DNA from: a virus
Direction: 5' to 3' (one strand)
IMG/VR virus record: IMGVR_UViG_3300012347_000070
Coordinates: 1 to 30,782 of that record
DNA length: 30,782 bases
Shown here: positions 1-27,770 of the stretch, one piece after another
Numbering within the stretch: position 1 is the stretch's first letter
Layout of the letters: each line of letters starts with the position of its first letter
Translations under genes and position numbers: made by a program
The notes under the pieces: model-generated
Databases searched by the model: none
What the model was told of the DNA's origin: nothing
Seen by the model: the letters and a program-made list of their open reading frames with translations, nothing else

Positions 1-55
1 GCAACTATTTGCACACCAAATCAACACTATCCAGATGAAAATTATTATAACGAAA
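1..55. repeat. 55-bp exact terminal direct repeat, copy 1 (identical to 30728..30782)
   Basis: Base-by-base comparison: gcaactatttgcacaccaaatcaacactatccagatgaaaattattataacgaaa occurs at both window ends. This implies a circular or circularly permuted unit of 30727 bp. Confidence 0.95.
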
Positions 56-78
56 CTTATAGAAAAACTAATATTTAA
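1..78 (+). CDS. C-terminal end of the wrap-around family-A small protein that starts at 30572 (...ATICTPNQHYPDENYYNETYRKTNI*)
   Basis: The frame of 30572 continues through the 55-bp overlap to TAA at 76..78. The C-terminal YYNETY motif is shared with the paralog at 29890..30114. Confidence 0.7.
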   Translation, partial: ATICTPNQHYPDENYYNETYRKTNI

Positions 79-193
79 CAAATGGCAAGAGCATATAGCT
101 AAAGAGCTAAGTAAAGATTATAAAAAGCTCTACTACTCAGCTAAATACGTGAAGAAAAAAGATGTAAAAAAAGTTTTACTTTCTAAAAATTAG
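35..193 (+). CDS. Possible small Lys-rich protein, 52 aa (MKIIITKLIEKLIFNKWQEHIAKELSKDYKKLYYSAKYVKKKDVKKVLLSKN)
   Basis: ATG-to-TAG ORF below the 60-aa cutoff of the track. It fills the space between the wrap-around gene and the boundary terminator and overlaps the upstream gene by 44 nt. Confidence 0.3.
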   Translation: MKIIITKLIEKLIFNKWQEHIAKELSKDYKKLYYSAKYVKKKDVKKVLLSKN

Positions 194-202
194 TTATATT
201 TG
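170..202 (+). promoter_or_regulatory. Bacteroidota-type promoter candidate (-7 box TATATTTG at 195..202, T-rich -33-like gttttac at 173..179)
   Basis: Exact match to the TAnnTTTG -7 consensus of Bacteroides/Flavobacterium primary-sigma promoters. The -33 TTTG is imperfect. Confidence 0.4.
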
Positions 203-207
203 TAGAA

Positions 208-304
208 CAATAAGCCTAGCGGGTCGTAGCGGTAGGGTTATTTTAAGGGTTAAAACAACCTAAAGCCAGTTTTGCACTACGACGCAAGCTGGCTTTTCTT
301 TTTT
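208..304 (+). ncRNA. Candidate small structured RNA or attenuator leader, about 95 nt, no ATG
   Basis: Lies between the promoter candidate and the terminator. Contains a locally GC-rich 5' segment with TAGCGG twice 10 bp apart (217..222, 227..232), a possible 5' hairpin and a 3' intrinsic terminator hairpin. There is no start codon before 313. Confidence 0.25.
262..304 (+). terminator. Rho-independent terminator at the early/middle boundary
   Basis: aaagccag (262..269) pairs with ctggcttt (289..296). The stem extends by ttgc/gcaa (272..275 with 284..287), loop actacgac, followed by ttttcttttttt. Confidence 0.65.
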
Positions 305-312
305 ATAATAAT

Positions 313-525
313 ATGAGTTTTGACTTTGTAATGTTAGAAGCACAAGTACCAAATGAAATTTATTGCAAGGCAATGGGTATCATTTATTCAAATTTATCAA
401 TAAGCAATATTAAAACAGATTTTGAATTAAAAACAGATGAAAGTATTCATCATTTTAAATTATCTGAATGTAATCCAATTTCAGGAGTTGTTGCTTATAT
501 CAACGATTATAATGTAAAATTATAA
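313..525 (+). CDS. Hypothetical protein, 70 aa
   Basis: ATG ORF. Its stop overlaps the next start as TAATG (translational coupling). Confidence 0.55.
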   Translation: MSFDFVMLEAQVPNEIYCKAMGIIYSNLSISNIKTDFELKTDESIHHFKLSECNPISGVVAYINDYNVKL

Positions 526-1244
526 TGAAATACTTTTTACACGATTCCAATTCGTTTAATGACGAGAAAATAACTGAGCTTTATTTAGAGTTCGGCTATG
601 AGGGTCTTGGATTGTTTTATACTATACTTGAAAAGCTTGCCTTACAAGAGAAACCTATTAAGACAATAGTATTAAAACATCAGTTAAACGTAGGCAAAAA
701 ATTAGAAAAATGCTGGACGTTTATGGAAGAAATAGATTTAATTTCTTCAAACAATGGTGAAACTTTCAACAAACAATTGCTAAACTTTAGTGAAAAGTAC
801 CAAGTTAAAAAAGAAAAAAACGCTAAACGAATTGCAGAATGGCGTGAAAATCAACAAGTTAGCGAAGATGTAACGCGTTACGAACACGTTAGTAACACTC
901 CTAAAGTAAATAAAAGTAAAGTAAAAGAAAGTAAAGTAAATAATATAGAAGATTTTGAGTACTTCTGGACTACGTATAATAAAAAAATTGATAGAGTTAA
1001 GTGTGAAAAGATTTGGAATAAATTATCTTTAGACGAAATTCAAAAAATTACTAGCACGGTCTCACAATACGTAAACGCTAACTCAGATTTACAATACAGA
1101 AAAAATCCTTCTACGTATTTAAATGGCAAGTGCTTTAATGACGAAATAATAATTACAATTCCTAGACCTCAATACAATGGAACTAACGACAAACAACCGC
1201 TCGGAACATCTGCCGCAAGAATGGAAGCCATTAAAAACTGGTAA
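525..1244 (+). CDS. DUF4373 (Lin1244/Lin1753-like N-terminal domain) protein, putative replication initiator/replisome organiser
   Basis: The N-terminus MKYFLHDSNSFNDEKITELYLEFGYEGLGLFYTILEKLA resembles the DUF4373 signature as I recall it. There is a basic KVNKSKVKESKVN linker, and the gene sits at the head of the replication/recombination module. Confidence 0.6.
   Translation: MKYFLHDSNSFNDEKITELYLEFGYEGLGLFYTILEKLALQEKPIKTIVLKHQLNVGKKLEKCWTFMEEIDLISSNNGETFNKQLLNFSEKYQVKKEKNAKRIAEWRENQQVSEDVTRYEHVSNTPKVNKSKVKESKVNNIEDFEYFWTTYNKKIDRVKCEKIWNKLSLDEIQKITSTVSQYVNANSDLQYRKNPSTYLNGKCFNDEIIITIPRPQYNGTNDKQPLGTSAARMEAIKNW
904..940 (+). repeat. GTAAA-unit direct repeats inside the DUF4373 gene (AAGTAAAGTAAA at 914..925 and 929..940, AAGTAAA at 904..910)
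   Basis: Read directly. GTAAA starts at 906, 916, 921, 931 and 936 (spacings 10, 5, 10, 5 bp). Confidence 0.8.
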
Positions 1245-1935
1245 CGCTTCCGCTAATATCATACTACAAGCACAGAGCACTCAAAGCTTACGTTTAAGAC
1301 ACGAAGAGGACTTAAAGCAAGTGTTACGTTACTCAATGGTTTTAGTAGGTCTTAGAGGCAATAATATGCCTACCGAAGAAGAGAAGTTTGTATTACTTAA
1401 TTTTATACGCTCAAACTTTGGAAACCAAACACCAGAAGAGATAAAGTTAGCTTTTGAATTAGCGGTAAGTGGTAAATTAGAAATCGATGCTAAATGCTAC
1501 GAAAACTTCTCTTGTGAATACTTTGGTCGAATTATGAAAGCTTACATTGATTACGCTAGACAAGAGACTATAACGGTAGTAAAAGAGATAGAAGTAGTTA
1601 AAGAAATTCCAAGCGATGCGGATTTAAAGATAGCAGCGATTAACTCAGCTAATATGTACGCTCAAGAAATGATTAGATGTCACGAGCGTAATATAAAAAT
1701 GAATTGGTTAGCCGGAGGTTTGCACGTTCTTTACGATTACATTGTAAAATTTGGTATTTACGAGGCTAGTCCAGAGGATAAAAAAAGGATTTACTCTACT
1801 CTTGTAAACAAATTTGATAACAAAGACGAGTTAATTATTGCTTGTAAAGCGGCTTGTTATAGAGAGTTTATCGAAAACCTTGCAGACTTTAACGCTTATT
1901 TAGATGAGAACGGAAATATTAAACCTATTGACTAA
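1177..1935 (+). CDS. Hypothetical replication-module protein; start uncertain
   Basis: Long ORF. ATG 1177 overlaps the upstream gene by 68 nt; in-frame ATGs at 1336 and 1366 are alternatives. The stop overlaps the next start as TAATG. Confidence 0.7.
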   Translation: MELTTNNRSEHLPQEWKPLKTGNASANIILQAQSTQSLRLRHEEDLKQVLRYSMVLVGLRGNNMPTEEEKFVLLNFIRSNFGNQTPEEIKLAFELAVSGKLEIDAKCYENFSCEYFGRIMKAYIDYARQETITVVKEIEVVKEIPSDADLKIAAINSANMYAQEMIRCHERNIKMNWLAGGLHVLYDYIVKFGIYEASPEDKKRIYSTLVNKFDNKDELIIACKAACYREFIENLADFNAYLDENGNIKPID

Positions 1936-3098
1936 TGAAAACAATTCAGCACAAATCAAATATAGTAAACGACAATTATACAAAATACGTATATGAGTCA
2001 TACGATATTCAAAATAAAGAATTTACCTCTGTTGATATTAATTACCAATTAGATAAATTAGATTCTTTTGAATGGAATATTATAGTAATTTTTGGAGGGT
2101 CTGGAAGTGGTAAGACTTCTATTTTAAAAAATATTGGAGATATTAAAACACCTGCTTTTAAAAACGACATTTCTTTAATATCTAATTTTGATTGGTTAGA
2201 GCCTAAAGATGCAACTCACTTACTTACTTCAGTAGGTTTATCTTCAGTTCCTACTTGGTTAAGACCTTTTAGTTCATTATCAAATGGGGAGCAATATAGA
2301 GCAACAATAGCTTATTTAATTAGCAAATCAAAAGATGGAGAAATTATTTTAATTGATGAGTTTACATCTGTTGTAAATAGAGACGTAGCTAAATCTATGT
2401 CTTTTGCAATTCAAAAATATATTAGAAGGCAAAATAAAAAGGTAATTTTTGCTTCTTGTCATTATGATATATTTGAATGGTTAATGCCTGATTATGTATT
2501 ATCACCAGAAAAGGGAGGCGCACTTGAGAAAGGCGAATGGCTTAGGCAAGGAAAACCAAGTATTAAGTTATCAGTTTACAGATGCAAACCTAAAGTTTGG
2601 GACTTGTTTAAAAAGCATCATTATCTAACAGAGGAAGTAAATGAAGCCTATATCTTTCTTTTGTTTGAATTAAATAATAAACCAATTGCGATAAATGTTA
2701 TGGGTATTCAGGTAGGAATAACAAATTGTTCAAAAAGTTATCGAGAGTCTAGGATTGTTGTTTTGCCAGATTACCAAGGTATGGGATTAGGTAGTAAAAT
2801 TTCTGAATTTTGCGCTGGGATTTCTAAGTTTTCTGAATCAAATTATTATACAAAAACTAGCAATCCTGCTTTAGGTGAGTATAGGAATAAAAGTAATAAA
2901 TGGATTGGAACTGGTCACAATGGAAAACTAAGAAATCAAAAAATAAATTCTAATAATTTATATGTTGGATTAAGAGATTCAGTACATTATTGTCACAAAT
3001 ATATAGGTGAATCAATAGAAGGTTATAGTGATTTATTATTACCTATTGATAAATTACGTTATAATGAAGAACATAAATTTCAATTAAATCTATTCTAA
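1935..3098 (+). CDS. Fusion protein: N-terminal ABC-type ATPase domain + C-terminal GNAT N-acetyltransferase domain (387 aa)
   Basis: Walker A GGSGSGKTS (nt 2094..2120). ABC-signature-like LSNGEQ (2277..). Walker B IILIDEF (2343..). H-loop-like ASCHYD. GNAT acetyl-CoA motif VVLPDYQGMGLGSKISEF (QGMGLG at nt 2775..2792). Confidence 0.7.
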   Translation: MKTIQHKSNIVNDNYTKYVYESYDIQNKEFTSVDINYQLDKLDSFEWNIIVIFGGSGSGKTSILKNIGDIKTPAFKNDISLISNFDWLEPKDATHLLTSVGLSSVPTWLRPFSSLSNGEQYRATIAYLISKSKDGEIILIDEFTSVVNRDVAKSMSFAIQKYIRRQNKKVIFASCHYDIFEWLMPDYVLSPEKGGALEKGEWLRQGKPSIKLSVYRCKPKVWDLFKKHHYLTEEVNEAYIFLLFELNNKPIAINVMGIQVGITNCSKSYRESRIVVLPDYQGMGLGSKISEFCAGISKFSESNYYTKTSNPALGEYRNKSNKWIGTGHNGKLRNQKINSNNLYVGLRDSVHYCHKYIGESIEGYSDLLLPIDKLRYNEEHKFQLNLF

Positions 3099-3100
3099 TA

Positions 3101-3328
3101 ATGGCACACCACAATAAAATACTAGAACACAAAACGACTTGCTTACATTGTGGGCATAAATGGAATCCCGAGATATTGCAAAGCATAATGTACGAGCAAA
3201 ATAAAGAATCTGTTAATATGAAATGCTTTTGCGGTTCACGTTATAGACTATTTGAAAACATAAACGGATTTATGGTATTTAGAAAATACATAATGAAAAA
3301 AGACCAAGTTAAACGAAAGACAAAATGA
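3101..3328 (+). CDS. Small zinc-ribbon-like protein, 75 aa
   Basis: CLHC ... CFC cysteine pairs. ATGA overlap with the next gene. Confidence 0.5.
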   Translation: MAHHNKILEHKTTCLHCGHKWNPEILQSIMYEQNKESVNMKCFCGSRYRLFENINGFMVFRKYIMKKDQVKRKTK

Positions 3329-3675
3329 TAACTATACTTGGGCAAGTACCTAGCAAATCGAATGGCTACAAGATTGGAAACAATAGGCTTTACAAATCTA
3401 AAGAGCTAATTGAATACGAGAATAAGTTTAAATGGTTACTAGCTCTAGCTAAAGGTAAACCAAGCGAACCTATTAAAGATAAATTTAGCATTGAAATTTT
3501 TGTCTATTTTCAATCGAATAGAAGCGACTTAGACAACGCAGCAAAGATAATCTTGGATTGTTTACAAACTAGCGGAGTAATAGAGAACGATAGGCTATGC
3601 CATCGGTTACTAATGTATAAATTCATAGACAAAGAAAATCCAAGAATAGAATTTAAAATTAAGGTAATATCCTGA
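3325..3675 (+). CDS. rusA: RusA-family Holliday junction resolvase
   Basis: GQVPSKSNGY N-terminal motif and the SDLDNAAKIILDCLQTSGVIENDRL acidic catalytic block are typical of RusA. Size is 116 aa. Confidence 0.8.
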   Translation: MITILGQVPSKSNGYKIGNNRLYKSKELIEYENKFKWLLALAKGKPSEPIKDKFSIEIFVYFQSNRSDLDNAAKIILDCLQTSGVIENDRLCHRLLMYKFIDKENPRIEFKIKVIS

Positions 3676-3706
3676 TTTTTTAAAAACAATTTAAGGTTAT
3701 ATCCTT

Positions 3707-4069
3707 ATGAATTTTAACAATGATTTTAAGTTTGATTTAGAGTTTGGGGTATTAGATGGCGAGACTTGGTTTCACGAGCTAGTAACTAACAAGAAAGTAG
3801 AGGTTAAAAGCGATAGAAGAACAAGCGAAACAGGTAACGTTTATATCGAGTATTGGTCACGAGGTAAGCCTAGCGGAATATCAACAAGCCAAGCGGACTT
3901 TTACGTTTATAAAGTTGGAGAAGACAAAGCTATTTTAATATCGACTAGCCAATTAAAGAAAAGGATAAAGCAATTAGTAGAATTAGGCAATGCTAGAATG
4001 AATGTAAAAGGGGGAGATAATAATACAAGTTTGGGAATTTTATGTAAACTAACGGATTTAATAAATTAA
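3707..4069 (+). CDS. Hypothetical protein, possible PD-(D/E)xK nuclease fold
   Basis: D17 ... E32-V-K34 (VLDGE...VEVKSD) spacing is compatible with the D-x(n)-E-x-K motif. Weak, by eye only. Confidence 0.6.
   Translation: MNFNNDFKFDLEFGVLDGETWFHELVTNKKVEVKSDRRTSETGNVYIEYWSRGKPSGISTSQADFYVYKVGEDKAILISTSQLKKRIKQLVELGNARMNVKGGDNNTSLGILCKLTDLIN
3817..3845 (+). promoter_or_regulatory. ECF-type bipartite motif copy 1 (aaGAAC-N15-CGTTTATA), intragenic
   Basis: GAAC ends at 3822 and CGTTTATA is at 3838..3845. Same architecture as the five other copies. Confidence 0.35.
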
Positions 4070-4070
4070 T

Positions 4071-4376
4071 ATGGAAAAGAAACAAACGGCAATAGAATGG
4101 CTAATAGACAAAGTAGAAGACCATTTCTGTTTATTACCAGTAGATTTAATTCAACAAGCTATGAAAATGCAAGAAGAACAATTTAAAGATTTTTTTATGG
4201 TAGGTGGTGATTGGGATGAGCTTCCGAATTCGAGGTTCAATAGATACTTTGATTCAAATTATAACAAGTTTGATTATATAAATTTATCTAATGAAAATAG
4301 TTGCAATAGATATAGTACTTTAGAATCCTTAAAAGCTAAACAACAAGACAATGAAAAAAAAACAAACGGCAATTGA
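4071..4376 (+). CDS. Family-A small protein, paralog A1 (MEKKQTAIEWLI...)
   Basis: The N-terminal KKQTAI(E/D)xLI motif and the nucleotide block aaacaaacggcaat (4080..4093) are shared with A2 (4360..4373). A3 shares aaacaaacggca (29899..29910). Confidence 0.7.
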   Translation: MEKKQTAIEWLIDKVEDHFCLLPVDLIQQAMKMQEEQFKDFFMVGGDWDELPNSRFNRYFDSNYNKFDYINLSNENSCNRYSTLESLKAKQQDNEKKTNGN

Positions 4377-4632
4377 CTCATTAATTAAAAGATGTAATGA
4401 TTCATTAGATAAAGAACCTATTAATCCTACTCAGCAAAAGATTGTATATAGCAAAGCTTTGTGTCACATAATTATTCTATTAGAAGAAGCCAAAGAAATG
4501 GAAGAAAAGCAGATAAAAGATGCTTTTGTTGAATGTTGGAAATCTAATATACCAGAAGGTATAGAATGCAAACTATCAGCAAAAGAATATTACTATAAAA
4601 CATACGGAAATGCTAACGACAAACGAAACTAA
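4351..4632 (+). CDS. Family-A small protein, paralog A2 (MKKKQTAIDSLI ... AKEMEEKQIKDA ... KEYYYKTY)
   Basis: Shares the N-terminal, central EKEQI(K/L)DA and C-terminal YY-x-x-TY motifs with 29890..30114 and 30572..78. Confidence 0.7.
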   Translation: MKKKQTAIDSLIKRCNDSLDKEPINPTQQKIVYSKALCHIIILLEEAKEMEEKQIKDAFVECWKSNIPEGIECKLSAKEYYYKTYGNANDKRN

Positions 4633-4831
4633 AGCTATCGAGTGGATAGAAGTTCAATTACTTAAACCTAACGAACGATTTATGCTCAAGGATGGAATAT
4701 ATATCAACGACTTACATTCGTCTCTTAAAACGCAAAAGGAACGTATTCTATTTGGGATAGACCCGCTAAGAAGATTAGCATTTTTGAGAGTGAGAGAAAT
4801 TAAAGACTATCTAAACAATAAATACAAATGA
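4610..4831 (+). CDS. Hypothetical small protein with a family-A-like N-terminus (NETKAIEWIE)
   Basis: ATG ORF with ATGA coupling to the next gene. Only the N-terminus resembles family A. Confidence 0.55.
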   Translation: MLTTNETKAIEWIEVQLLKPNERFMLKDGIYINDLHSSLKTQKERILFGIDPLRRLAFLRVREIKDYLNNKYK

Positions 4832-5184
4832 GCAATATAGAAGACATAATTAAGACACAATACATAAGTTTGGATTCAGCAAAATTAAGAGTTTTTGTAG
4901 ATGACATAAAAAAATTTGAGCCAATATTTAATTTACATAAGCCGGAAAATATAAATGAAGGCTTTAATGAAGATTTTATACCGATACTTATTCCAGACAA
5001 AGAAAAGAGAGCAAAATATAATATACCGAGTTTTGTTGAAGATATAGCAATTTCAAGTGATAAGACTTATGATAATTGCCTAATTATATCGGTAAATGAT
5101 TGGTATGATATAAATTTACTTCACGATTGGATTCAAGATTATCTAAACCAAAAATACAATGACACCAAAAGAAAAAGCTTATGA
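4828..5184 (+). CDS. Hypothetical protein, 118 aa
   Basis: ATG ORF tiled in the operon. Confidence 0.6.
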   Translation: MSNIEDIIKTQYISLDSAKLRVFVDDIKKFEPIFNLHKPENINEGFNEDFIPILIPDKEKRAKYNIPSFVEDIAISSDKTYDNCLIISVNDWYDINLLHDWIQDYLNQKYNDTKRKSL

Positions 5185-5365
5185 GCTATTTAGTAAATTT
5201 TATTATGTTATTCCATCATTTGAATTACCAATAGATGACCAAGTAGCTAAAGAATGTTCACTAATTGCAATAGATGAGATAATGAAAGTAGTATCATTTT
5301 ATAACGATACACAAGCAGAATATTATTATTGGGAAGAAGTACAAGAAGAAATAGAAAAACTATGA
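5159..5365 (+). CDS. Family-B small protein, paralog B1 (MTPKEKAYELF...YYWEEV)
   Basis: The N-terminal MTPK(E/Q)KA-x-EL motif and C-terminal YW-x-(E/A)V are shared with 30382..30570 and, more loosely, with 6255..6431. Confidence 0.65.
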   Translation: MTPKEKAYELFSKFYYVIPSFELPIDDQVAKECSLIAIDEIMKVVSFYNDTQAEYYYWEEVQEEIEKL

Positions 5366-5535
5366 GACATATTAAGCTTAGAAAAATTGTAAGAAAGCAA
5401 AAGGCAATAGAGCAAGCTAAGAAAAACGCACCAGACCAAGGTAATAGTATTATTTATTTTGGTTTAGATACATACAATGAAATAAATGAAATGTTGAAAA
5501 ATAATTATAAAAAGGTTGAAAGATTTAAATTATGA
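5362..5535 (+). CDS. Hypothetical basic protein, 57 aa
   Basis: I prefer ATG 5362 (ATGA overlap with the upstream stop) to the TTG at 5329 used by the track. Confidence 0.5.
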   Translation: MRHIKLRKIVRKQKAIEQAKKNAPDQGNSIIYFGLDTYNEINEMLKNNYKKVERFKL

Positions 5536-5885
5536 GCCTAAGCCAAGAAGATAAAGACAAAGCACTAACCTATTTCACAATGTGTCAAGCATTAATTCAT
5601 ATTATTGAAGATGAGTGGATAGGAAACCCAGCGAATAGACAAAGAGTAAAGTCTATAACGAATCAACAACTTAAAGAGCTTGAAAAAGTAGTAGAGATTC
5701 TTTTACCAAGAGGAGATTACACCGAGCAAGGTATGAAAGTTACCGAGCAATTTATAGAAGCAGCTGAGGCAATGCTATTCTTTTACAAAATCGGAGTGCA
5801 AATGTCCCGACTAGATGATACTAAGAGAGAGACTTTGAATACACAAATGAATATTTTGTTAAAATCCTATGAAATAAATACTTAA
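5532..5885 (+). CDS. Hypothetical protein, 117 aa
   Basis: ATG ORF with ATGA overlap to the upstream gene. Confidence 0.6.
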   Translation: MSLSQEDKDKALTYFTMCQALIHIIEDEWIGNPANRQRVKSITNQQLKELEKVVEILLPRGDYTEQGMKVTEQFIEAAEAMLFFYKIGVQMSRLDDTKRETLNTQMNILLKSYEINT

Positions 5886-5889
5886 AAAT

Positions 5890-5921
5890 TTTGTTTAATC
5901 GATTTTTTTCATTAAACTTTG
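5890..5921 (+). promoter_or_regulatory. Bacteroidota-type promoter candidate (TTTG 5890..5893, N20, AAACTTTG 5914..5921)
   Basis: The -33 TTTG is present and the -7 box has one mismatch to TAnnTTTG. Spacing falls within the 19-21 nt range. It lies in the 51-nt gap before the DUF3310 gene. Confidence 0.35.
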
Positions 5922-5936
5922 CAAAAGTCAAACGAT

Positions 5937-6164
5937 ATGAACTACGTAGAACCTCACGAAAAACTTAGTTTAGTTAATCACCCACAACACTACCAAGGAA
6001 ACGGAATCGAAGTAATAGATATAATTGAAGCATTCAGTTTAAACTTCTCTCTAGGAAACTCAATAAAGTATATTTTAAGAGCAGATAAGAAAGGGAATAA
6101 GAAGCAAGACCTCGAAAAAGCGATTTGGTATCTTAACAACGAGCTAAAAAAATTCAATGGATAA
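5937..6164 (+). CDS. DUF3310-family protein
   Basis: VNHPQHYQGNGIEVIDIIEAF ... NSIKYILRADKKGNKKQDLEKAIWYL matches the DUF3310 pattern as I recall it. I chose ATG 5937 over the upstream TTG 5919. Confidence 0.7.
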   Translation: MNYVEPHEKLSLVNHPQHYQGNGIEVIDIIEAFSLNFSLGNSIKYILRADKKGNKKQDLEKAIWYLNNELKKFNG

Positions 6165-7305: not shown

Positions 7306-7561
7306 GGTAGACAAACGAGGAGGAGCCAGAGAAGGGGCTGGCCGTAAATCTAAAGCTGAAGAACAATCTTTAGTAGAGAAGCTAACACCATTAGAGCCTA
7401 AAGCATTTGCGGTACTAGCTCAAGCGTTAGAAGACCATAAAGACTGGGCAGTTAAGCTATTCTTTCAATATCAGTTTGGTATGCCTAAGCAAGTGGTAGA
7501 CCAAAACACTACGCATACGATTAATGACTTTGACATTAAGGACATTGTAAAATTTAAGTGA
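7298..7561 (+). CDS. terS: Putative small terminase subunit
   Basis: Lies immediately upstream of terL and is coupled to it by a GTGA overlap. Basic N-terminus MDKVDKRGGAREGAGRKSK. ATG 7298 preferred over the track's GTG 7229. Confidence 0.45.
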   Translation: MDKVDKRGGAREGAGRKSKAEEQSLVEKLTPLEPKAFAVLAQALEDHKDWAVKLFFQYQFGMPKQVVDQNTTHTINDFDIKDIVKFK

Positions 7562-8769
7562 TAGAGCTAAATAGGAAATATGTACCTTTATTTGAAAGCG
7601 GAAGTAGGTACTTTGTAATTACGGGTGGAAGGGGTTCGGGCAAATCGTTTGCTTTGAACTCCTTTCTTTTGCTTCTAACGTACGAAGTAGGACACGTGAT
7701 ACTATTTACTAGATATACGCTTACTTCGGCTCATATCTCAATTATACCCGAGTTTGTAGAGAAGATAGAAATGGCTGGTCTTGAATCAGACTTTTACATA
7801 ACCAAAGACGAGATTATTAACACTCGTACAAATTCAAAGATTTTATTTAGGGGGATTAAAACCTCGAGCGGAACGCAAACCGCTAATCTCAAATCGTTAC
7901 AAGGTGTTACGACTTGGATACTAGACGAAGCCGAGGAGCTAACAGATGAAGACATCTTTGACAAGATAGACTTCTCTATTCGTAATAGCCAAAGACAAAA
8001 CCGAGTTATCTTAATTCTTAACCCGACTACCAAAGAGCACTTTATTTATAATCGATTCTTTGAAGAAAAGGGTGTTCAATCTGGACAATCCACAACGCAA
8101 GGCGATACGACTTACATACATACCACGTATAAGGATAATATTGATTACCTAAGTGAATCCTTCTTAAATCAAATCGAAGCCTTAGAGCGTACAAATAAAC
8201 GCAAATATGAGCATACGATTCTTGGAGGGTGGCTAGACAAAGCCGAAGGTGTAGTATTTACTAACTGGTCTTATGGGCAATTTAATCCCGACAACTTACA
8301 AACCTCATTCGGTCAAGACTTTGGTTTCTCGATTGACCCTACCACGCTAGTAGAAGTGGCGATAGATAAGACTAAGCGTAAGATATACGTTAAGGAGCAT
8401 CTTTATAAGCCCAAGCTAACTACAAGTGAGATAGCCCATATTAACAAGCGTGTTTGCGCTAAAGGATTAATTGTAGCGGATAGTGCCGAGCCTAGACTAA
8501 TAGCCGAGCTTCAGTCTCAAGGATGTAATATAATTGCGACAGAAAAAGGAGCGGGAAGTATAACGGCTGGTATCGCTTTAATACAAGATTACGAATTGAT
8601 TGTAGAATCTAACTCGCAAAACATTGGAAAAGAACTCAACAATTACATCTACTCAGATAAAAAATCTGGGCTTGTGGTCGATAACTTTAACCACGCTCTT
8701 GATGCGCTACGTTACAACGTCTTCTACCAGTTATCAAATCCAAACCAAGGAAAGTATTTCGTGTACTAG
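7558..8769 (+). CDS. terL: Terminase large subunit (PBSX-like family)
   Basis: Walker A ITGGRGSGKSF, Walker B-like TWILDEAEE, and a C-terminal RNase-H-like nuclease region (FGQDFGFSIDPT ... ADSAEPRLI ... HALDALRY). Confidence 0.9.
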   Translation: MIELNRKYVPLFESGSRYFVITGGRGSGKSFALNSFLLLLTYEVGHVILFTRYTLTSAHISIIPEFVEKIEMAGLESDFYITKDEIINTRTNSKILFRGIKTSSGTQTANLKSLQGVTTWILDEAEELTDEDIFDKIDFSIRNSQRQNRVILILNPTTKEHFIYNRFFEEKGVQSGQSTTQGDTTYIHTTYKDNIDYLSESFLNQIEALERTNKRKYEHTILGGWLDKAEGVVFTNWSYGQFNPDNLQTSFGQDFGFSIDPTTLVEVAIDKTKRKIYVKEHLYKPKLTTSEIAHINKRVCAKGLIVADSAEPRLIAELQSQGCNIIATEKGAGSITAGIALIQDYELIVESNSQNIGKELNNYIYSDKKSGLVVDNFNHALDALRYNVFYQLSNPNQGKYFVY

Positions 8770-13592: not shown

Positions 13593-13741
13593 TAGAACAA
13601 ATTTTAAAAATGCTTTCAAGTTTTGAGCATTATAATAGAAGCGAGGTAATAGAAATTGCTAAAGGCAAATATGAATTACCAAAAACATTTAAAAAGGGCT
13701 GGAATCAAATAAAACGTAATTACAAATGGCAAAATCAATAG
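13589..13741 (+). CDS. Small hypothetical protein, 50 aa (MIEQILKMLSSFEHYNRSEVIEIAKGKYELPKTFKKGWNQIKRNYKWQNQ)
   Basis: Below the track cutoff. ATGA overlap with the upstream stop. It fills an otherwise 133-nt gap and overlaps the next start by 16 nt. Confidence 0.45.
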   Translation: MIEQILKMLSSFEHYNRSEVIEIAKGKYELPKTFKKGWNQIKRNYKWQNQ

Positions 13742-15330
13742 AAGTAGATATTAACGTTAATAATAATATTGAAGGCTCTATATCTCAATTAAAGGCACTT
13801 AAAAGAGAGTTAAAAAACACGGCGGTAGGAACTGAAGAGTTTAAGAACTTATTTAATCAAATTGATGACTTAGAGGACAAGATTAAGTCAGCTAAAAACG
13901 TTTCTAGCGATTGGATAGACTCTTTAGAATCCGCTGGCGGGCCAATTGGTATGCTAGGAGGGGCTTTAAATAAAGCTAAAGTAGCTACTCAATCTTGGGG
14001 AGCGGCATTAAAAGCGGCTGGTATTGGTTTAATCGTTGCGGCGGTAGGTGGTTTAGTTGCGGCTTTCTCAGAATCTGAGTCCGCAATGAAAAAACTTGAG
14101 CCATTATTTATTGGGTTAGAGAAGATTTTAGGTGGTATTATGAAAGTATTTGAGCCTTTGCTAGATGCTTTTATTAGTCTTGCTTTAAACGCTTTGCCTT
14201 ATATCACAAAAGGTATAGGTGTATTCTATTCTAGCTTATTTGCTCTATTTACTTTAATTAAAAACGTAGGATTTGGAGCGGGTAAAATTCTTAAAGGGAT
14301 ATTTACTTTAGATTTCAAGTCTATTAGCGATGGATACGAGCAACTAAAAGGAAGTTGGGGCGAAGCAGTTAAAGATTTTGAGGCTACAAATAAGCGATTT
14401 AATGAAGGCACAAAGGAATTAACTAAAACCGAAAAGGAAAACTCTAAGAAAAGAGTAGAAAATAGAAAGACAGAAAAGAAAGAGAAAGATAAAGTTATTG
14501 ATTCGGAGCTACAAGCTATGCGAGAGTTTCAAACTGAATACGAAAACTATCTAAAGCGTTTAACTGATATTCAAAAGCAGTATAATACTGAAATAGAAGA
14601 CTTACAAGCGGTAACTGAACAACAAAAGCTAGATTTGTGGTATAAGCGTAGAGCGGAAGAAATAGACGCTATTACAAAAGACGCAGGCGAGAAGAATGAT
14701 TTATACGCTTTATTAGAAACTGAAAGAGCGATTAAGCAAGCCGAAATTGAAAAGAAAAAAGAGGATGAACTAACTAAGATTAGGCAAGAAGGTGAAGAGG
14801 CACGTACAAAATATGAAGCTGAGCAATCGGATGCTAGAAAGAAAATAGCGGAATTAGAAGTTAAAGCAAAGCAAGAATTATTACAAATTGGAGCAAATGC
14901 TTTAGGAGTAGCGGCAAGTCTTTTAGGAGAATCAACGGATGAAGGTAAAGCGGCAGCAATTGCTTCTACTACCATTTCTACTTACTTAGCAGCTCAACAA
15001 GCTTATGCTTCACAACTTGCTATACCTACACCTGATGCGCCTTTTAGAGCGGCTTTAGCGGCTGGGGTTGCGGTAGCTTCTGGTCTCGCAAACGTGCAAA
15101 AGATTTTATCGGTACAAACTCCAAATGGAGGTGGTAATGGTGGTGGAGTTCCTAGTGGAGGAGCACCGCAAGCACCATCTTTCAACGTAGTAGGCACTAG
15201 CGGAGCTAACCAAATTGCACAAACATTAGGACGAGAGCAAGCCCCATTAAAAGCTTACGTAGTTGCTCAAGACGTAACAACACAACAAGCTCTTAATAGA
15301 AATATTGTTACCTCGGCAAGCCTTGGATAA
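13726..15330 (+). CDS. Tape-measure-like or internal virion protein, 534 aa
   Basis: N-terminal coiled coil, hydrophobic Gly/Ala-rich membrane-like segments (AAGIGLIVAAVGGLVAAF), a long charged coiled coil (KKEKDK...EIEKKKEDE), and a C-terminal Gly-rich NGGGNGGGVPSGG. Confidence 0.5.
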   Translation: MAKSIEVDINVNNNIEGSISQLKALKRELKNTAVGTEEFKNLFNQIDDLEDKIKSAKNVSSDWIDSLESAGGPIGMLGGALNKAKVATQSWGAALKAAGIGLIVAAVGGLVAAFSESESAMKKLEPLFIGLEKILGGIMKVFEPLLDAFISLALNALPYITKGIGVFYSSLFALFTLIKNVGFGAGKILKGIFTLDFKSISDGYEQLKGSWGEAVKDFEATNKRFNEGTKELTKTEKENSKKRVENRKTEKKEKDKVIDSELQAMREFQTEYENYLKRLTDIQKQYNTEIEDLQAVTEQQKLDLWYKRRAEEIDAITKDAGEKNDLYALLETERAIKQAEIEKKKEDELTKIRQEGEEARTKYEAEQSDARKKIAELEVKAKQELLQIGANALGVAASLLGESTDEGKAAAIASTTISTYLAAQQAYASQLAIPTPDAPFRAALAAGVAVASGLANVQKILSVQTPNGGGNGGGVPSGGAPQAPSFNVVGTSGANQIAQTLGREQAPLKAYVVAQDVTTQQALNRNIVTSASLG

Positions 15331-18404: not shown

Positions 18405-18731
18405 ATGATAGTTTTAAGAGAATCCAATTTAGCGCAAAGTGTAAGATTCGTTCCTACTCGTAGAAATGCGGGGAATAAGCTATTTTTGCGAAACGAAACT
18501 ACTAACGTAGAAGTAGAATACGATATTACTTGTACTCAAACGTCTTACTATCTTACTTTCTCAAAGGTATTAACTTTAGAAGAAGGACACTTTTACACAA
18601 TGACTATAAAGCAAGATGCCGAGTTAATCTTTAGAGATAAGGTATTTTGCACGAATCAAACAATAGGAGCGTATAGCGTTAATAATAACGAGTACGTACA
18701 AAACGACCAAAATATAATTTTCTATGAGTAA
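18405..18731 (+). CDS. Hypothetical virion-module protein, 108 aa
   Basis: ATG ORF with 8-nt overlap with the portal gene start. Confidence 0.65.
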   Translation: MIVLRESNLAQSVRFVPTRRNAGNKLFLRNETTNVEVEYDITCTQTSYYLTFSKVLTLEEGHFYTMTIKQDAELIFRDKVFCTNQTIGAYSVNNNEYVQNDQNIIFYE

Positions 18732-20463
18732 CGTTCACGTTTTTAACTTTGAATCTCATAAGCCCCCGCAATCCGTAGAATCTAACAAAGAAGCTTGGGT
18801 TAATTTCGGAGACGATAACGACTACTTCAAGTACTTAATTGATAGATATAATAACTCGACTACTAATAACTCGGTTATTAATTCTATTAATAAGTTAATC
18901 TATGGTAGGGGATTAGATGCAACGGACTCAAACAAAAAGCCGAACGAATACGCTCAGATGAAAATGTTATTTCGTCCTGAGGTATTAAAGTGCGTTATTA
19001 CCGACTATAAATTACTTGGACAAGGATACTTTCAATTAATCTATAACAAGGCTAAGAATGCGATTATTAGAGTAGAGCACGTGCCAGCTCAATTAATCCG
19101 CTCCGAGAAATGCAATGAGAAAGGCGAAATTACTGGTTATTACTATTCTGATAACTGGCAAGACATTAAGAACTTTGTGCCAAAGCGTATTAGTGCATTT
19201 GGTTATGGCGATAAAACGTTAGAGATTCTTTGTGTTAGAGATTATAGCGTAGGACAAAAATACTATTCTAACGTAGATTATATCGGGGCTTTGCCTTACG
19301 CTAAGTTAGAAGAAGAGATTGCTGACTATTTGATTAACGATGTTCAAAACGGGTTTTCCCCTACTAGCGTTATTAACTTTAATAATGGTGTACCAGACGA
19401 AGAGAAACAAGGTTTAATTGCAGCAGACGTAAAGCGTAAATTAGCGGGTTCTAGCGGTGCTAAAATTGTTGTAGCGTTCAATAGTGACGAGACAAAGAAA
19501 ACGACTATTGATAGCGTACCTTTAAACGATGCTCCGGCACACTATACATATTTAAGTGAAGAATCGAGAGGCAAGATTTTATTAGGTCACTCTATTACTA
19601 GTGGCTTGCTATTTGGTATCCCTTCTAACAATGGATTTAGCTCAAACGCTGACGAGTTAAAGAATGCTTCTATCTTGTTTGATAATATGGTAATTCGTCC
19701 TAAACAAGGAACGGTTTTAGATGCTATCGACAAGATTTTAGCGTTTAACAATATTAGCTTAAATCTTTACTTTAAGACTTTACAACCTTTGGAATTTATT
19801 GACCAGAATCCGGCAATGAATACCGAGCAAGTAGAAGAAGAGACTGGTTTGAAGCTTTCTTCTCAATTAGAGGAGCTAGAAACTTACGGAGAAGAGTTAG
19901 ACCTTAACGAGTGGGAGTTAATCGATTCTAGGGTAGTAGAAAGCCTTGAGGAGGAAGAGAAATTAAACGCTGAGTTAGAATTATTAAACAATCCTAAAAA
20001 ATCGGTATTTAGTAAGATTTGGGAGTTAGCAACGGTATCTACCGGAGTGGCTAGACCAGACTTAAAATCTGCTTTAGATGGTAAGTTATTTATTTCTCGT
20101 TATCGTTATAGCGGTAACCCTACTCCCGAAAGAGCATTTTGTAAAAAAATGATGCAAATGAATAAACTATATCGTAAAGAAGATATAGATAAGATGAGCC
20201 AAAAGAATGTTAATCCCGGCTTTGGTATGGCTCCTAACCCAAATGCTCCTTACGATATTTTTCTTTGGAAGGGAGGCGGTAAATTAAGCAATGAGTTTCA
20301 GTTTGGGACTTGTAAGCATTTTTGGACGAGAGAAACTTATAAGAGATTCACAGACCCAAGAAAGAAAGGAACGGTAGAGATTACCCCGGCACAAGCTCGC
20401 AAGGCTGGCGAAATTTTACCAACGGTAGACAAGAGAGCGTATATTGCGCCTCACGATATGTAA
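18724..20463 (+). CDS. Portal protein with an extended Cys-containing C-terminal domain
   Basis: 579 aa. The N-terminal two thirds look portal-like (size, YYSDNW, acidic stretch EEETGLKLSSQLEELE). The C-terminal ~140 aa carry ERAFCKKM ... GTCKHFW. Confidence 0.6.
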   Translation: MSNVHVFNFESHKPPQSVESNKEAWVNFGDDNDYFKYLIDRYNNSTTNNSVINSINKLIYGRGLDATDSNKKPNEYAQMKMLFRPEVLKCVITDYKLLGQGYFQLIYNKAKNAIIRVEHVPAQLIRSEKCNEKGEITGYYYSDNWQDIKNFVPKRISAFGYGDKTLEILCVRDYSVGQKYYSNVDYIGALPYAKLEEEIADYLINDVQNGFSPTSVINFNNGVPDEEKQGLIAADVKRKLAGSSGAKIVVAFNSDETKKTTIDSVPLNDAPAHYTYLSEESRGKILLGHSITSGLLFGIPSNNGFSSNADELKNASILFDNMVIRPKQGTVLDAIDKILAFNNISLNLYFKTLQPLEFIDQNPAMNTEQVEEETGLKLSSQLEELETYGEELDLNEWELIDSRVVESLEEEEKLNAELELLNNPKKSVFSKIWELATVSTGVARPDLKSALDGKLFISRYRYSGNPTPERAFCKKMMQMNKLYRKEDIDKMSQKNVNPGFGMAPNPNAPYDIFLWKGGGKLSNEFQFGTCKHFWTRETYKRFTDPRKKGTVEITPAQARKAGEILPTVDKRAYIAPHDM

Positions 20464-26338: not shown

Positions 26339-26794
26339 ATGCGAAAATTACTTATTCTTTTGGCTTGTGTTAGCTTATTATCTTGTAAGCATACAAAGAC
26401 CTTAACCGAGTATAAAGAACTCGTTAGAATCGATACTATCAAAAGTGAAAAGATAGTAGAAAGATTCAAAGCTATACACGATACAATTACAATTGTAAAC
26501 CCTTGCGATTCGAGCGGGGTGCTAACTAGATTCTACTCTAAGCTAATTATCCCACAAGGTAACATTACTATAAAATCAGATGGGACTAGTATTAAAGCTC
26601 AAGTAGATTTAGATTCTACTAGAAGCGAGATAGAGAATAACTATCGTAACTCTCAGGTTAAATGGATTGAGTATCGAGACAAAGAGGTTATTAAGTACCA
26701 AGTACCTACTTGGGTAGTCGTATTATTGTTAGTAGAGTTCTTAGCACTTGTAGCTTGGTTATACCTTAAATTTGGACTAAATGGCATTAAGTAA
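26339..26794 (+). CDS. Lipoprotein with a C-terminal TM helix: unimolecular spanin candidate
   Basis: Signal peptide plus lipobox MRKLLILLACVSLLSC, and a C-terminal TM segment VPTWVVVLLLVEFLALVAWLYLKF. Located directly after the endolysin. Confidence 0.5.
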   Translation: MRKLLILLACVSLLSCKHTKTLTEYKELVRIDTIKSEKIVERFKAIHDTITIVNPCDSSGVLTRFYSKLIIPQGNITIKSDGTSIKAQVDLDSTRSEIENNYRNSQVKWIEYRDKEVIKYQVPTWVVVLLLVEFLALVAWLYLKFGLNGIK

Positions 26795-27770
26795 AAAGTG
26801 GGAAGCGATTAGAGACCATTTCTATTCGACCAATTTAACAAGAGTAGACTTTGAGCGTGAGAACTATCAAAGCTATGGCTTTAGTAGCCAAGAAATATTT
26901 CACGGGCTTATGAGTCGTAATAACATTGGGGTTAAATCTCGAAGCGAATACTTTAAGAATACAAGACCAGCCGCTCAAATAGAATCATTTGACGTAGACG
27001 AGCTAGACAATTTCGGTATTGAAGAAAGCATAGGTAAGGAATACACAAGCCACAAGATAGCATCCGAATTCAAAAAGGTTGGAATAATGAGTGATGTTCA
27101 CGTTCCGTTTCACTCGATGTCTGCTTTAACTTGTGTAATTAAGTACTTTAGAGAAGAAAAAATAGATTGTCTTATTATGAATGGCGATATATTCGACTTC
27201 TACTCTATATCACGACACGAAAAGGAAAAGGATTTACGAGACTTTGCTAAAGAAATAGAGATGGGTCGTAACTTCTTACAAAAGATTAGAGACCTATTTC
27301 CAACTATACCCATATATTATAAGATGGGAAATCACGAGGCAAGATGGCAAAAATATCTTAATGAGCAAGCGGAAGAATTTGCTGCACTTCACGAGATGCA
27401 ATTTGAGCAATTTTTCAGGCTAGATAAATTAAATATGATTTATATACCTGACTGGCAAGGAATAGAATTAGCTGACTTATTGATACTTCACGGCCAAGAA
27501 TTGATGGCAGGTGGAATGAATCCCTCTCAAAGCACTTTTAACAAGACATTTTGTAACACTTTAATAGGCCACGTACATAGAACTACTAGCACTATTAAAA
27601 AAGATGGATTTAAAAACTTTATACACTCTTATTCTACTGGTTGCTTAACTCAATTATCGCCTAAATACTATCCTTTTGCTCAGCATAACTGGGGAGCTGC
27701 TTTAGTAAATATTGTAGATGGTAAGACAAAAGTTAATAATTTTGTTATAAAAGACGGAAAAATAGTTTAG
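26781..27770 (+). CDS. Calcineurin-like metallophosphoesterase with an ~95-aa N-terminal extension
   Basis: Ordered motifs DVH (MSDVHVPFH), GDIFD, GNHE, LHGQE, GHVH. Confidence 0.8.
   Translation: MALSKKWEAIRDHFYSTNLTRVDFERENYQSYGFSSQEIFHGLMSRNNIGVKSRSEYFKNTRPAAQIESFDVDELDNFGIEESIGKEYTSHKIASEFKKVGIMSDVHVPFHSMSALTCVIKYFREEKIDCLIMNGDIFDFYSISRHEKEKDLRDFAKEIEMGRNFLQKIRDLFPTIPIYYKMGNHEARWQKYLNEQAEEFAALHEMQFEQFFRLDKLNMIYIPDWQGIELADLLILHGQELMAGGMNPSQSTFNKTFCNTLIGHVHRTTSTIKKDGFKNFIHSYSTGCLTQLSPKYYPFAQHNWGAALVNIVDGKTKVNNFVIKDGKIV

Follow-up and report, generated by a model that had tools for sequence, protein, structure and literature searches.

A phage protein uniting an ABC-type ATPase with a GNAT acyltransferase domain, and the case for a DNA-modification role of its family

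What might a phage do with an ABC-type ATPase and a GNAT acetyltransferase held in one polypeptide and encoded among its replication genes? The question is raised by a complete gene at positions 1935..3098 (+ strand; ATG start, 387 amino acids plus stop) of IMG/VR record IMGVR_UViG_3300012347_000070, of which the whole 30,782-nucleotide stretch was analyzed and is referred to here as the window. On sequence comparison the gene product, here termed ABC-GNAT, is a new member of a recognized, computationally predicted family, and its architecture is not a new one. The gene contexts of that family support a DNA-modification role, and ABC-GNAT on balance probably acylates DNA bases in an ATP-dependent reaction and so serves to evade restriction.

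Membership of the family is established by an end-to-end match to phrog_11143 ('unknown function'), in which residues 3-362 of 387 align with positions 2-354 of the 357 in the profile (E = 3.7e-118). A word-indexed protein search for the family, which we take to be COG2401, scored 6,291 matches among 8,000 candidates, an exhaustive search of 50%-identity representatives gave 399 clusters at E <= 1e-30, and at least 585 IMG/VR loci carry a member. The best annotated match is that of Tenacibaculum phage pT24 (54% identity, E = 3e-127 by tblastn); the Nonlabens P12024S homologue is 48% identical and QAX98348.1 of Aeromonas phage AsFcp_2 (locus ASfcp2_2) 38% (E = 8e-56 by tblastn). Further homologues occur in phages of Vibrio, Aeromonas, Leptospira, Gordonia, Arthrobacter, Burkholderia, Pseudomonas, Pasteurella, Porphyromonas, Lactococcus, Oenococcus, Enterococcus and Streptococcus. 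Those of annotated phages are usually entered as 'ABC transporter' or 'hypothetical', and several JGI records name the protein 'ABC-type ATPase with predicted acetyltransferase domain'. Both QAX98348.1 and the pT24 protein are cited as ABC-GNAT proteins predicted to make an uncharacterized DNA-base acyl modification (Iyer et al. 2021, PMC7824862), a prediction that, as cited there, originates with Iyer, Zhang, Burroughs & Aravind 2013. The survey of homologues proposed with the original prediction, for the same fusion or for split versions of it, found both: the fusion is widespread, and P335 carries separate Orf24 (ABC) and Orf25 (GNAT, Pfam 3e-7) genes whose stop and start codons overlap. 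Given that such clean split forms exist, the two domains very likely act as one module. Two members show interruptions of other kinds. A 715-aa protein (P0365) contains an intein, comprising Hint and a LAGLIDADG homing endonuclease, within its ABC ATPase half, and the pT24 homologue (L006 3001-4173, BPT24_038/037) is annotated as two coding sequences, both 'ABC transporter ATP-binding', where tblastn aligns one piece; the division is either a frameshift or an annotation split.

That a single polypeptide contains both domains, as originally proposed, is borne out by Pfam ABC_tran, by AlphaFold and Protein Data Bank (PDB) matches of both halves, and by phrog_11143, and the suggested fold check on each half confirmed an ABC nucleotide-binding domain (NBD) and a GNAT domain against PDB. 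The whole-protein AlphaFold2 model has a pLDDT of 81.8 and a pTM of 0.68, and its best Foldseek matches in PDB are the ABC NBDs PotA, MsmX, MacB, MalK and MJ0796 (E 1e-8 to 1e-6). The NBD occupies residues about 1-205 (1935..2549; this and all further features of the gene lie on the + strand), where pLDDT is mostly 80-93 and the ABC_tran match reaches 28.6 bits, above the 25-bit cut-off. The GNAT core, with the order b1-a1-a2-b2-b3-b4-a3-b5-a4-b6, follows at residues about 206-325 (2550..2909). Its Pfam matches, Acetyltransf_7 and Acetyltransf_1, are singly under cut-off (Acetyltransf_7 23.8 vs 27); the separate model of residues 201-387 (pLDDT 81.5, pTM 0.79) has 209 PDB matches at E <= 1e-3, and among the matches listed GNAT-type acyltransferases account for 50 of 50. 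Single-sequence and family-profile searches of solved structures gave weak ABC NBD matches only and no family member.

Every motif quoted in the original prediction is present in the open reading frame (ORF): GGSGSGKTS at residues 54-62, LSNGEQ at 115-120, IILIDEF at 137-143, CHYD at 175-178, and the acetyl-CoA-binding motif VVLPDYQGMGLGSKISEF at 275-292. Conservation was assessed in a 51-sequence alignment and then in 179 non-identical sequences spanning three subfamilies at ~30% identity. In the Walker A motif or P-loop, G54-G-S-G-S-G-K-T61 (2094..2117), residues G54, S56, G57, G59 and K60 are invariant in the 51 and at least 90% conserved in the 179. The ABC signature is the variant L115-S-N-G-E-Q120 (2277..2294), preceded by an invariant P106-x-W-L-R-P111; Walker B, I137-ILIDE142, retains the catalytic Glu and is followed by the D-loop S145-V-V-N148 (together 2343..2378), and in the H-loop, C175-H176-Y-D178 (2457..2468), C175, H176 and D178 are invariant together with S174. 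Invariant or at least 90% conserved residues of this half are P106, W108, L109, R110, P111, L115-S-N-G-E119, D141-E142, S145-V-V and S174-C-H176-x-D178. Their counterparts in the GNAT half are H228-H229-Y230, R273, V275, P278, Q281, G282, G284, G286, T308, P311 and W323. Of these, the invariant H228-H229-Y230 triad (2616..2624) lies in the a1-a2 substrate-binding region and may be an acceptor-site motif, and GNAT motif A (2751..2792) comprises b4, R273-I-V-V-L-P278, and the CoA-pyrophosphate loop Q281-G-M-G-L-G286, with R273, V275, P278, Q281, G282 and G286 invariant. The catalytic motifs are thus intact, and because they are invariant or at least 90% conserved, both the ATPase and the GNAT active sites are under selection.

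If the folds define what the protein is, the gene contexts point to what it may act on. Loci of four subfamilies were compared using crude gene calls, local profiles seeded from annotated partners, and a three-frame scan of 700 bp upstream; annotated records with matching patterns are phiE255, Axumite, P335, LE3, 315.4, a Porphyromonas phage and EastWest. Subfamily B, from Mu-like betaproteobacterial phages (phiE255-like), has a Com-like ORF upstream in 69 of its 74 loci, the ABC-GNAT gene being the X of com-X there, and a mini-module of ~50 aa in 70. The Com-like ORF matches Pfam Zn_ribbon_Com (3.2e-16) and shares 43% identity with Mu Com over the zinc-finger region (E = 2e-8). The ABC-GNAT gene lies no more than 2 kb from the contig end in 50 of the 74 loci, and in phiE255 it (gp29) comes after the tail-fibre genes. 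Given the upstream Com, the position near the contig end and the place after the tail-fibre genes, this order mirrors com-mom of phage Mu. The same slot is occupied in FluMu, Pnm1 and a related island by an unrelated but proven non-specific m6A DNA methyltransferase downstream of com (PMC3299994); these enzymes (Hin1523, Nma1821, Hia5) share their position with subfamily B ABC-GNAT, are S-adenosylmethionine-dependent, and are unrelated to it in sequence and fold. Since Mom in Mu and the m6A methyltransferases in FluMu and Pnm1 fill this slot, 'com-X' can be read as a DNA-modification cassette. In phiE255 itself (L002, about 4500-4995) the Com-like zinc-ribbon ORF (...CGHCRRKLATGRYIELSIKCPRCGVINHLKAE...) is unannotated and lies directly upstream of gp28, a 54-aa protein that is the mini-module and whose only homology is to one part of the ParB-fold partners of other subfamilies, their C-terminal module of ~50 residues.

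Those partners characterize subfamilies C and D. In subfamily C, the Streptococcus prophage type with split ABC and GNAT genes, a ParB-fold gene is immediately upstream in 16 of 17 loci and an ASCH gene is at +2 or +3 in 11; in phage 315.4 the large terminase then follows. In subfamily D, actinobacterial and Gordonia Axumite-like, a ParB-fold gene is immediately upstream in 43 of 48 loci, a formyltransferase gene is at +1 in 35 of 47, and terminase is at +2 or +3. Formyltransferase also occupies +1 in subfamily B, in 39 of the 56 loci with a downstream gene. The ParB-fold partner is built of a ParB-N domain and a C-terminal module of ~50 residues, the part that alone is retained in Mu-like phages; Pfam ParB_N recognizes 19 of the 23 partners (best 5.5e-12), and their profile matches the ParB, Spo0J and Noc structures at about 1e-12. 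In six representative clusters the whole partner is fused to the ABC-GNAT N-terminus (576-623 aa; E 6e-14 to 1e-39), which ties it to ABC-GNAT independently of adjacency. Experiments have shown a phage ParB-like protein to be the activator of an enzyme that modifies DNA bases after replication, a 5mYOX thymidine dioxygenase, whose family also has a ParB-independent stand-alone subclass (PMC13229309). The 5mYOX enzymes, whose genes are often near terminase, differ from ABC+GNAT in having a Fe/2OG dioxygenase fold and chemistry; their ParB-dependent and stand-alone subclasses nevertheless appear to parallel the split among ABC-GNAT subfamilies. Adjacency and fusion suggest that ABC-GNAT enzymes may depend on ParB. 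As to the formyltransferases, Axumite gene 3 (L003 1805-2452) is labelled 'tRNA-methyltransferase', probably wrongly, and matches Pfam Formyl_trans_N (1e-8), as do phiE255 gp30 and the Porphyromonas phage neighbour.

The window belongs to subfamily A, in which the picture is simpler. Unlike the rest of the family, its members are stand-alone genes in the replication modules of small Bacteroidota phages: a ParB-fold gene within 700 bp upstream was found in 0 of 79 loci, and the same loci contain neither an upstream Com nor a downstream formyltransferase. The ASCH-like DUF3850 is at +1 in 7 of the 79 (7 of the 78 sister loci of the window). When the four neighbours on either side were clustered over the 79 loci no fixed partner emerged, the largest cluster covering 18 loci and all being replication/recombination genes, and a search of the window ORFs for ParB-like, mini-module, formyltransferase, ASCH and Com sequences gave no match even at E <= 10. 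What surrounds the gene in this subfamily is DnaA-C HTH, DUF6291, DnaB-like helicase, ERF, NinG, primase and PD-(D/E)XK genes, and in the window a replication-initiator-like gene upstream and RusA downstream; the placement in a replication/recombination module that had been proposed is therefore well founded. No subfamily-specific insert that would account for partner independence was found; the only distinction is a C-terminal extension (residues 326-387, 2910..3095), partly modelled at low confidence, that is ~10 residues longer than in the ParB-linked subfamilies. For the window copy, then, the assignment rests on homology with conserved catalytic residues, on the replication/recombination operon, and on the precedent of stand-alone subclasses. 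Of the two hypotheses first offered for this gene, the Com-controlled mom slot, the ParB-fold partners, whether neighbouring or fused, and the nearby formyltransferase and ASCH genes favour modification of DNA by acylation over an exclusion or counter-defence module.

From these folds, motifs and contexts we infer substrate, donor, product and role as follows. By analogy with other ABC ATPases, two ABC-GNAT copies would pair head to tail, with ATP held where the Walker A of either copy faces the LSNGE signature of its partner, and the ATP-sandwiched dimer would form an ATP-gated clamp or engine on DNA. Binding and hydrolysis of ATP would then make a target base accessible, or hand it over, to the C-terminal GNAT domain, as the ATPase domain of TmcA does with C34 of tRNA(Met). 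An acyl-CoA donor is suggested by the invariant Q-G-x-G-x-G loop, and the GNAT domain would move the acyl group, most likely acetyl from acetyl-CoA, onto an exocyclic base amine. Modification would most likely be post-replicative, and the modified phage DNA would resist restriction. In other subfamilies the enzyme would work with the ParB-fold partner and often with a formyltransferase, and the window's subfamily would have dispensed with both. Acyl groups on adenine N6 are unstable, and TmcA is a precedent for GNAT acylation of an aromatic amine, the N4 of cytosine (PMC13219725). ASCH proteins are N4-acylcytosine amidohydrolases (PMC6972931) and have been proposed as tRNA ac4C erasers; because ASCH genes recur beside the ABC-GNAT gene, the leading guess for the product, on thin evidence, is N4-acylcytosine, with cytosine N4 as the acylated site. 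A fuller version of this proposal has ABC-GNAT, as a single ATP-driven polypeptide, write N4-acyl (acetyl) cytosine into double-stranded DNA, with ASCH/DUF3850 proteins as readers or erasers, formyltransferase-linked cousins making a further, formylated hypermodified base, and the window's subfamily as the minimal partner-independent version; as a whole it is conceivable but rather doubtful. To our knowledge, N4-acyl (acetyl) cytosine in double-stranded DNA would be a phage modification for which no dedicated enzyme is known.

The obvious point of reference is Mom of Mu, which belongs to the GNAT superfamily and moves glycine from Gly-tRNA(Gly) onto the N6 of adenine in double-stranded DNA (PMC13219725). 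Like Mom, ABC-GNAT has a phage-encoded GNAT fold, the Mu-like members occupy the same Com-controlled slot after the tail-fibre genes and usually near the contig end, and restriction evasion by acylation of a base amine is likely shared. Mom, however, has no ATPase domain and uses charged tRNA, whereas ABC-GNAT keeps the invariant CoA-pyrophosphate loop. Membership of the Mom family was considered and rejected: hhalign of the family profile against Mu Mom was not significant (probability 0.35%, E = 0.17), and Mom is absent from the top 50 structural matches of the GNAT model. In the single top alignment of that non-significant comparison, Mom H58-Y59, which are candidate active-site residues (PMC13219725), fall over the invariant H229-Y230, and this is a lead only.

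Were the acceptor RNA rather than DNA, ABC-GNAT would be a TmcA-like ATP-dependent acetyltransferase placing N4-acetylcytidine or an aminoacyl-tRNA acyl mark on host or phage tRNA or rRNA and thereby tuning or protecting translation. The formyltransferase neighbours are at least compatible with this, as they fall in PF00551, a family that includes Met-tRNA formyltransferase, and ribosome-binding ABC-F proteins are among the best ABC matches at the sequence level (ExpZ 1.2e-4; Msr and ABC-F models). Like ABC-GNAT, TmcA/NAT10 is a single polypeptide with a P-loop ATPase and a GNAT domain; among the top 50 structure matches TmcA (PDB 2zpa) is the sole annotated fusion of this kind and the only one to align across both halves (~427 columns, E = 1.9e-7). 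It acetylates a nucleobase amine, cytidine N4 of tRNA(Met), with acetyl-CoA and ATP (PMC13219725), and the family of the ASCH neighbours has been reported to erase tRNA ac4C. TmcA differs, though, in its RecD-like helicase ATPase module and additional domains for tRNA binding, the two structures superpose poorly overall (TM 0.24/0.16), and with an ABC NBD in place of that module and no match to TmcA-specific Pfam domains the protein was not assigned to TmcA/NAT10; the likeness to TmcA is one of mechanism, not of descent. ABC-F proteins, with their two tandem NBDs, are only weakly resembled, tRNA genes are absent from the window, and the Com-controlled mom slot, the ParB-fold partner and its fusions, and the terminase and replication neighbours indicate DNA, all of which makes an RNA target unlikely. 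Somewhat more improbable is an acetyltransferase of proteins, serving host takeover or counter-defence, in which the ABC domain would be an ATP-gated targeting or regulatory module. Counter-defence by protein acetylation does have an example in an Acr-type acetylase of a defence protein, and an 'acr candidate' annotation adjoins the Porphyromonas phage homologue. Phage GNATs that acetylate host proteins are documented, e.g. the phiKMV Rac acetylase of RNA polymerase (PMC7824862), and the closest listed solved GNAT folds are, weakly, the protein N-acetyltransferases RimI and Ard1 (TM about 0.6, 10-17% identity). Such fold similarity is nevertheless generic to all GNATs, and neither the ParB-fold linkage and fusion, nor the replacement of mom behind com, nor the formyltransferase and ASCH partners would be expected of a protein acetyltransferase.

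The original prediction also raised a one-protein exclusion or counter-defence module, which finds no specific support. In its fuller form this would be an abortive-infection, superinfection-exclusion or toxin module with an ABC sensor and a TacT/AtaT-like GNAT acetylating aminoacyl-tRNA, and it is very improbable. ABC ATPases are indeed the sensors in PARIS, Septu and Gabija, and PADLOC models give weak matches (mads_3 1.6e-7, AbiLi 3.3e-6, AriA 1.6e-4, PtuA 1.9e-4), but these are limited to the P-loop or to the signature/Walker B segment and do not exceed 30 bits (best 29), and no antitoxin-like, Toprim or nuclease partner is present among the neighbours examined. Assignment to the defence ABC ATPases (OLD, PARIS AriA, Septu PtuA, AbiL) or to the GNAT toxins (TacT/AtaT) was accordingly rejected, there being no full-length PADLOC match and no cognate effector or antitoxin neighbour. 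Across hundreds of phages, moreover, the family sits in operons of lytic-cycle replication or of the late region, not in moron or defence islands. Since mom-like genes are themselves toxic when deregulated (PMC3299994), toxicity alone would not discriminate between a toxin and a DNA modifier. Hardly credible at all is the reading implied by source annotations such as 'ABC transporter ATP-binding protein', 'hemin importer' and 'iron siderophore transporter', namely the ATPase subunit of an ABC transporter, an auxiliary metabolic gene. The closest solved NBDs are transporter NBDs, and the N-terminal fold and ATP-binding motifs are common to ABC-GNAT and to the transporter and ABC-F NBDs (MJ0796, MalK, MacB, VmlR/ExpZ). 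ABC-GNAT differs from transporter NBDs in having no transmembrane partner, an LSNGE variant signature, a family-specific P-x-WLRP and a fused GNAT domain. The NCBIfam transporter models all remain at about 20-33 bits where their cut-offs are 130-750 (best 32.8 vs 254.85), a permease or substrate-binding gene adjoins ABC-GNAT in 0 of the loci examined, and an invariant GNAT fusion or coupling has no transporter rationale; with curated models far under cut-off and no permease, context effectively refutes this reading.

Several considerations weigh against a DNA base acyltransferase as well. No experimental study of any family member was found in the literature, and to that extent the initial view of the architecture as one without a characterized phage function stands; as a family, however, it is recognized, through phrog_11143, the JGI name and Iyer et al. 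The Com, ParB and formyltransferase evidence all comes from subfamilies only ~30% identical to the window protein, and the window and its 79 closest loci are without such partners. ParB/Srx-fold proteins are also nucleases or NTPases in conflict systems (PMC10853773), and the presence of a ParB fold is consequently no proof of DNA base modification. ASCH activity has so far been seen on nucleosides and tRNA, not DNA, and the streptococcal ASCH counts are not independent, as they come from closely related prophages. The listed GNAT-only fold matches (RimI, Ard1, PaiA, SpeG and GCN5, at TM about 0.5-0.6) are generic, and because the domain is not specifically like Mom or any solved GNAT the acceptor cannot be read from the fold. 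Finally, residue 148 of the D-loop (2376-2378) is Asn in the window protein and Asp in 176 of 178 compared relatives, a substitution that could alter ATPase coupling in this copy.

DNA-base acyl marks are almost unexplored, and Mom, with an unexpected tRNA-dependent chemistry described in 2026, is the only worked-out case. The ABC-GNAT family is far more widespread, extending over phages of Bacteroidota, Proteobacteria, Actinobacteria, Firmicutes and Spirochaetes, and is still routinely mis-annotated as 'ABC transporter'. Should it prove to be a DNA acyltransferase, it would represent a new class of phage anti-restriction modification, would affect the sequencing and restriction-based handling of such phage DNAs, and might possibly provide a programmable ATP-gated DNA-acetylating tool. 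As no partner gene is needed, the window copy is a convenient, compact, single-gene test case; likewise, if the family does write N4-acylcytosine, the window's partner-independent subfamily would be the easiest to reconstitute.

Within the window the gene lies in a tightly packed operon, given that its ATG shares 1 base with the preceding stop codon (TAATG) and that the downstream ORF begins 2 nt past its own stop. A promoter and terminator scan gave no signal above chance. The original prediction had taken AT-richness as a hint of separate acquisition. Its counts of 14 and 17 G+C per 60 nt are exact, but the inference was rejected: the neighbouring early genes span 0.24-0.36 in GC content, so that at 0.284 the gene is not an outlier, and its value is close to that of region 1-6000 (0.304), the late region being at 0.36; third-position GC is low, at 0.165, yet this is common to three other early ORFs. 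Upstream, the replication-initiator-like gene (525-1244, +) and the adjoining 252-aa ORF (1177-1935, +; phrog_26016, unknown function) share 68 nt in the listed coordinates, and the true start of the latter may be further downstream. The ORF that follows ABC-GNAT (3101-3328, +) encodes a 75-aa Cys-rich, zinc-ribbon-like protein (CxxC ... CxC); against the local Com profile it is not Com-like, and it has a weak DUF7340 match only. Further on, two adjacent small ORFs (4071-4376 and 4351-4632, +) have near-identical N-termini (MEKKQTAIEWLI... and MKKKQTAIDSLI...) and appear to be tandem paralogues.

Large terminase, portal, tape-measure-like and tail genes mark the window as a whole as a tailed-phage genome. 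It has no near relative among deposited phages (INPHARED), and its closest genomic relatives are contigs of Bacteroidota metagenome-assembled genomes (MAGs). Every genomic relative is Bacteroidota except one, a 35.8-kb contig (L240, PBPJ01000031.1) with a 47%-identical homologue from a 'Candidatus Woesearchaeota' MAG, which is probably a mis-binned phage contig. The head-tail order is unusual: the large terminase (7558-8769, +) and the portal (18724-20463, +) are ~10 kb apart, with the portal downstream and the tape-measure-like gene (13726-15330) between them. The late region also carries a metallophosphoesterase-family gene (26781-27770, +; phrog_221, 6.6e-36).

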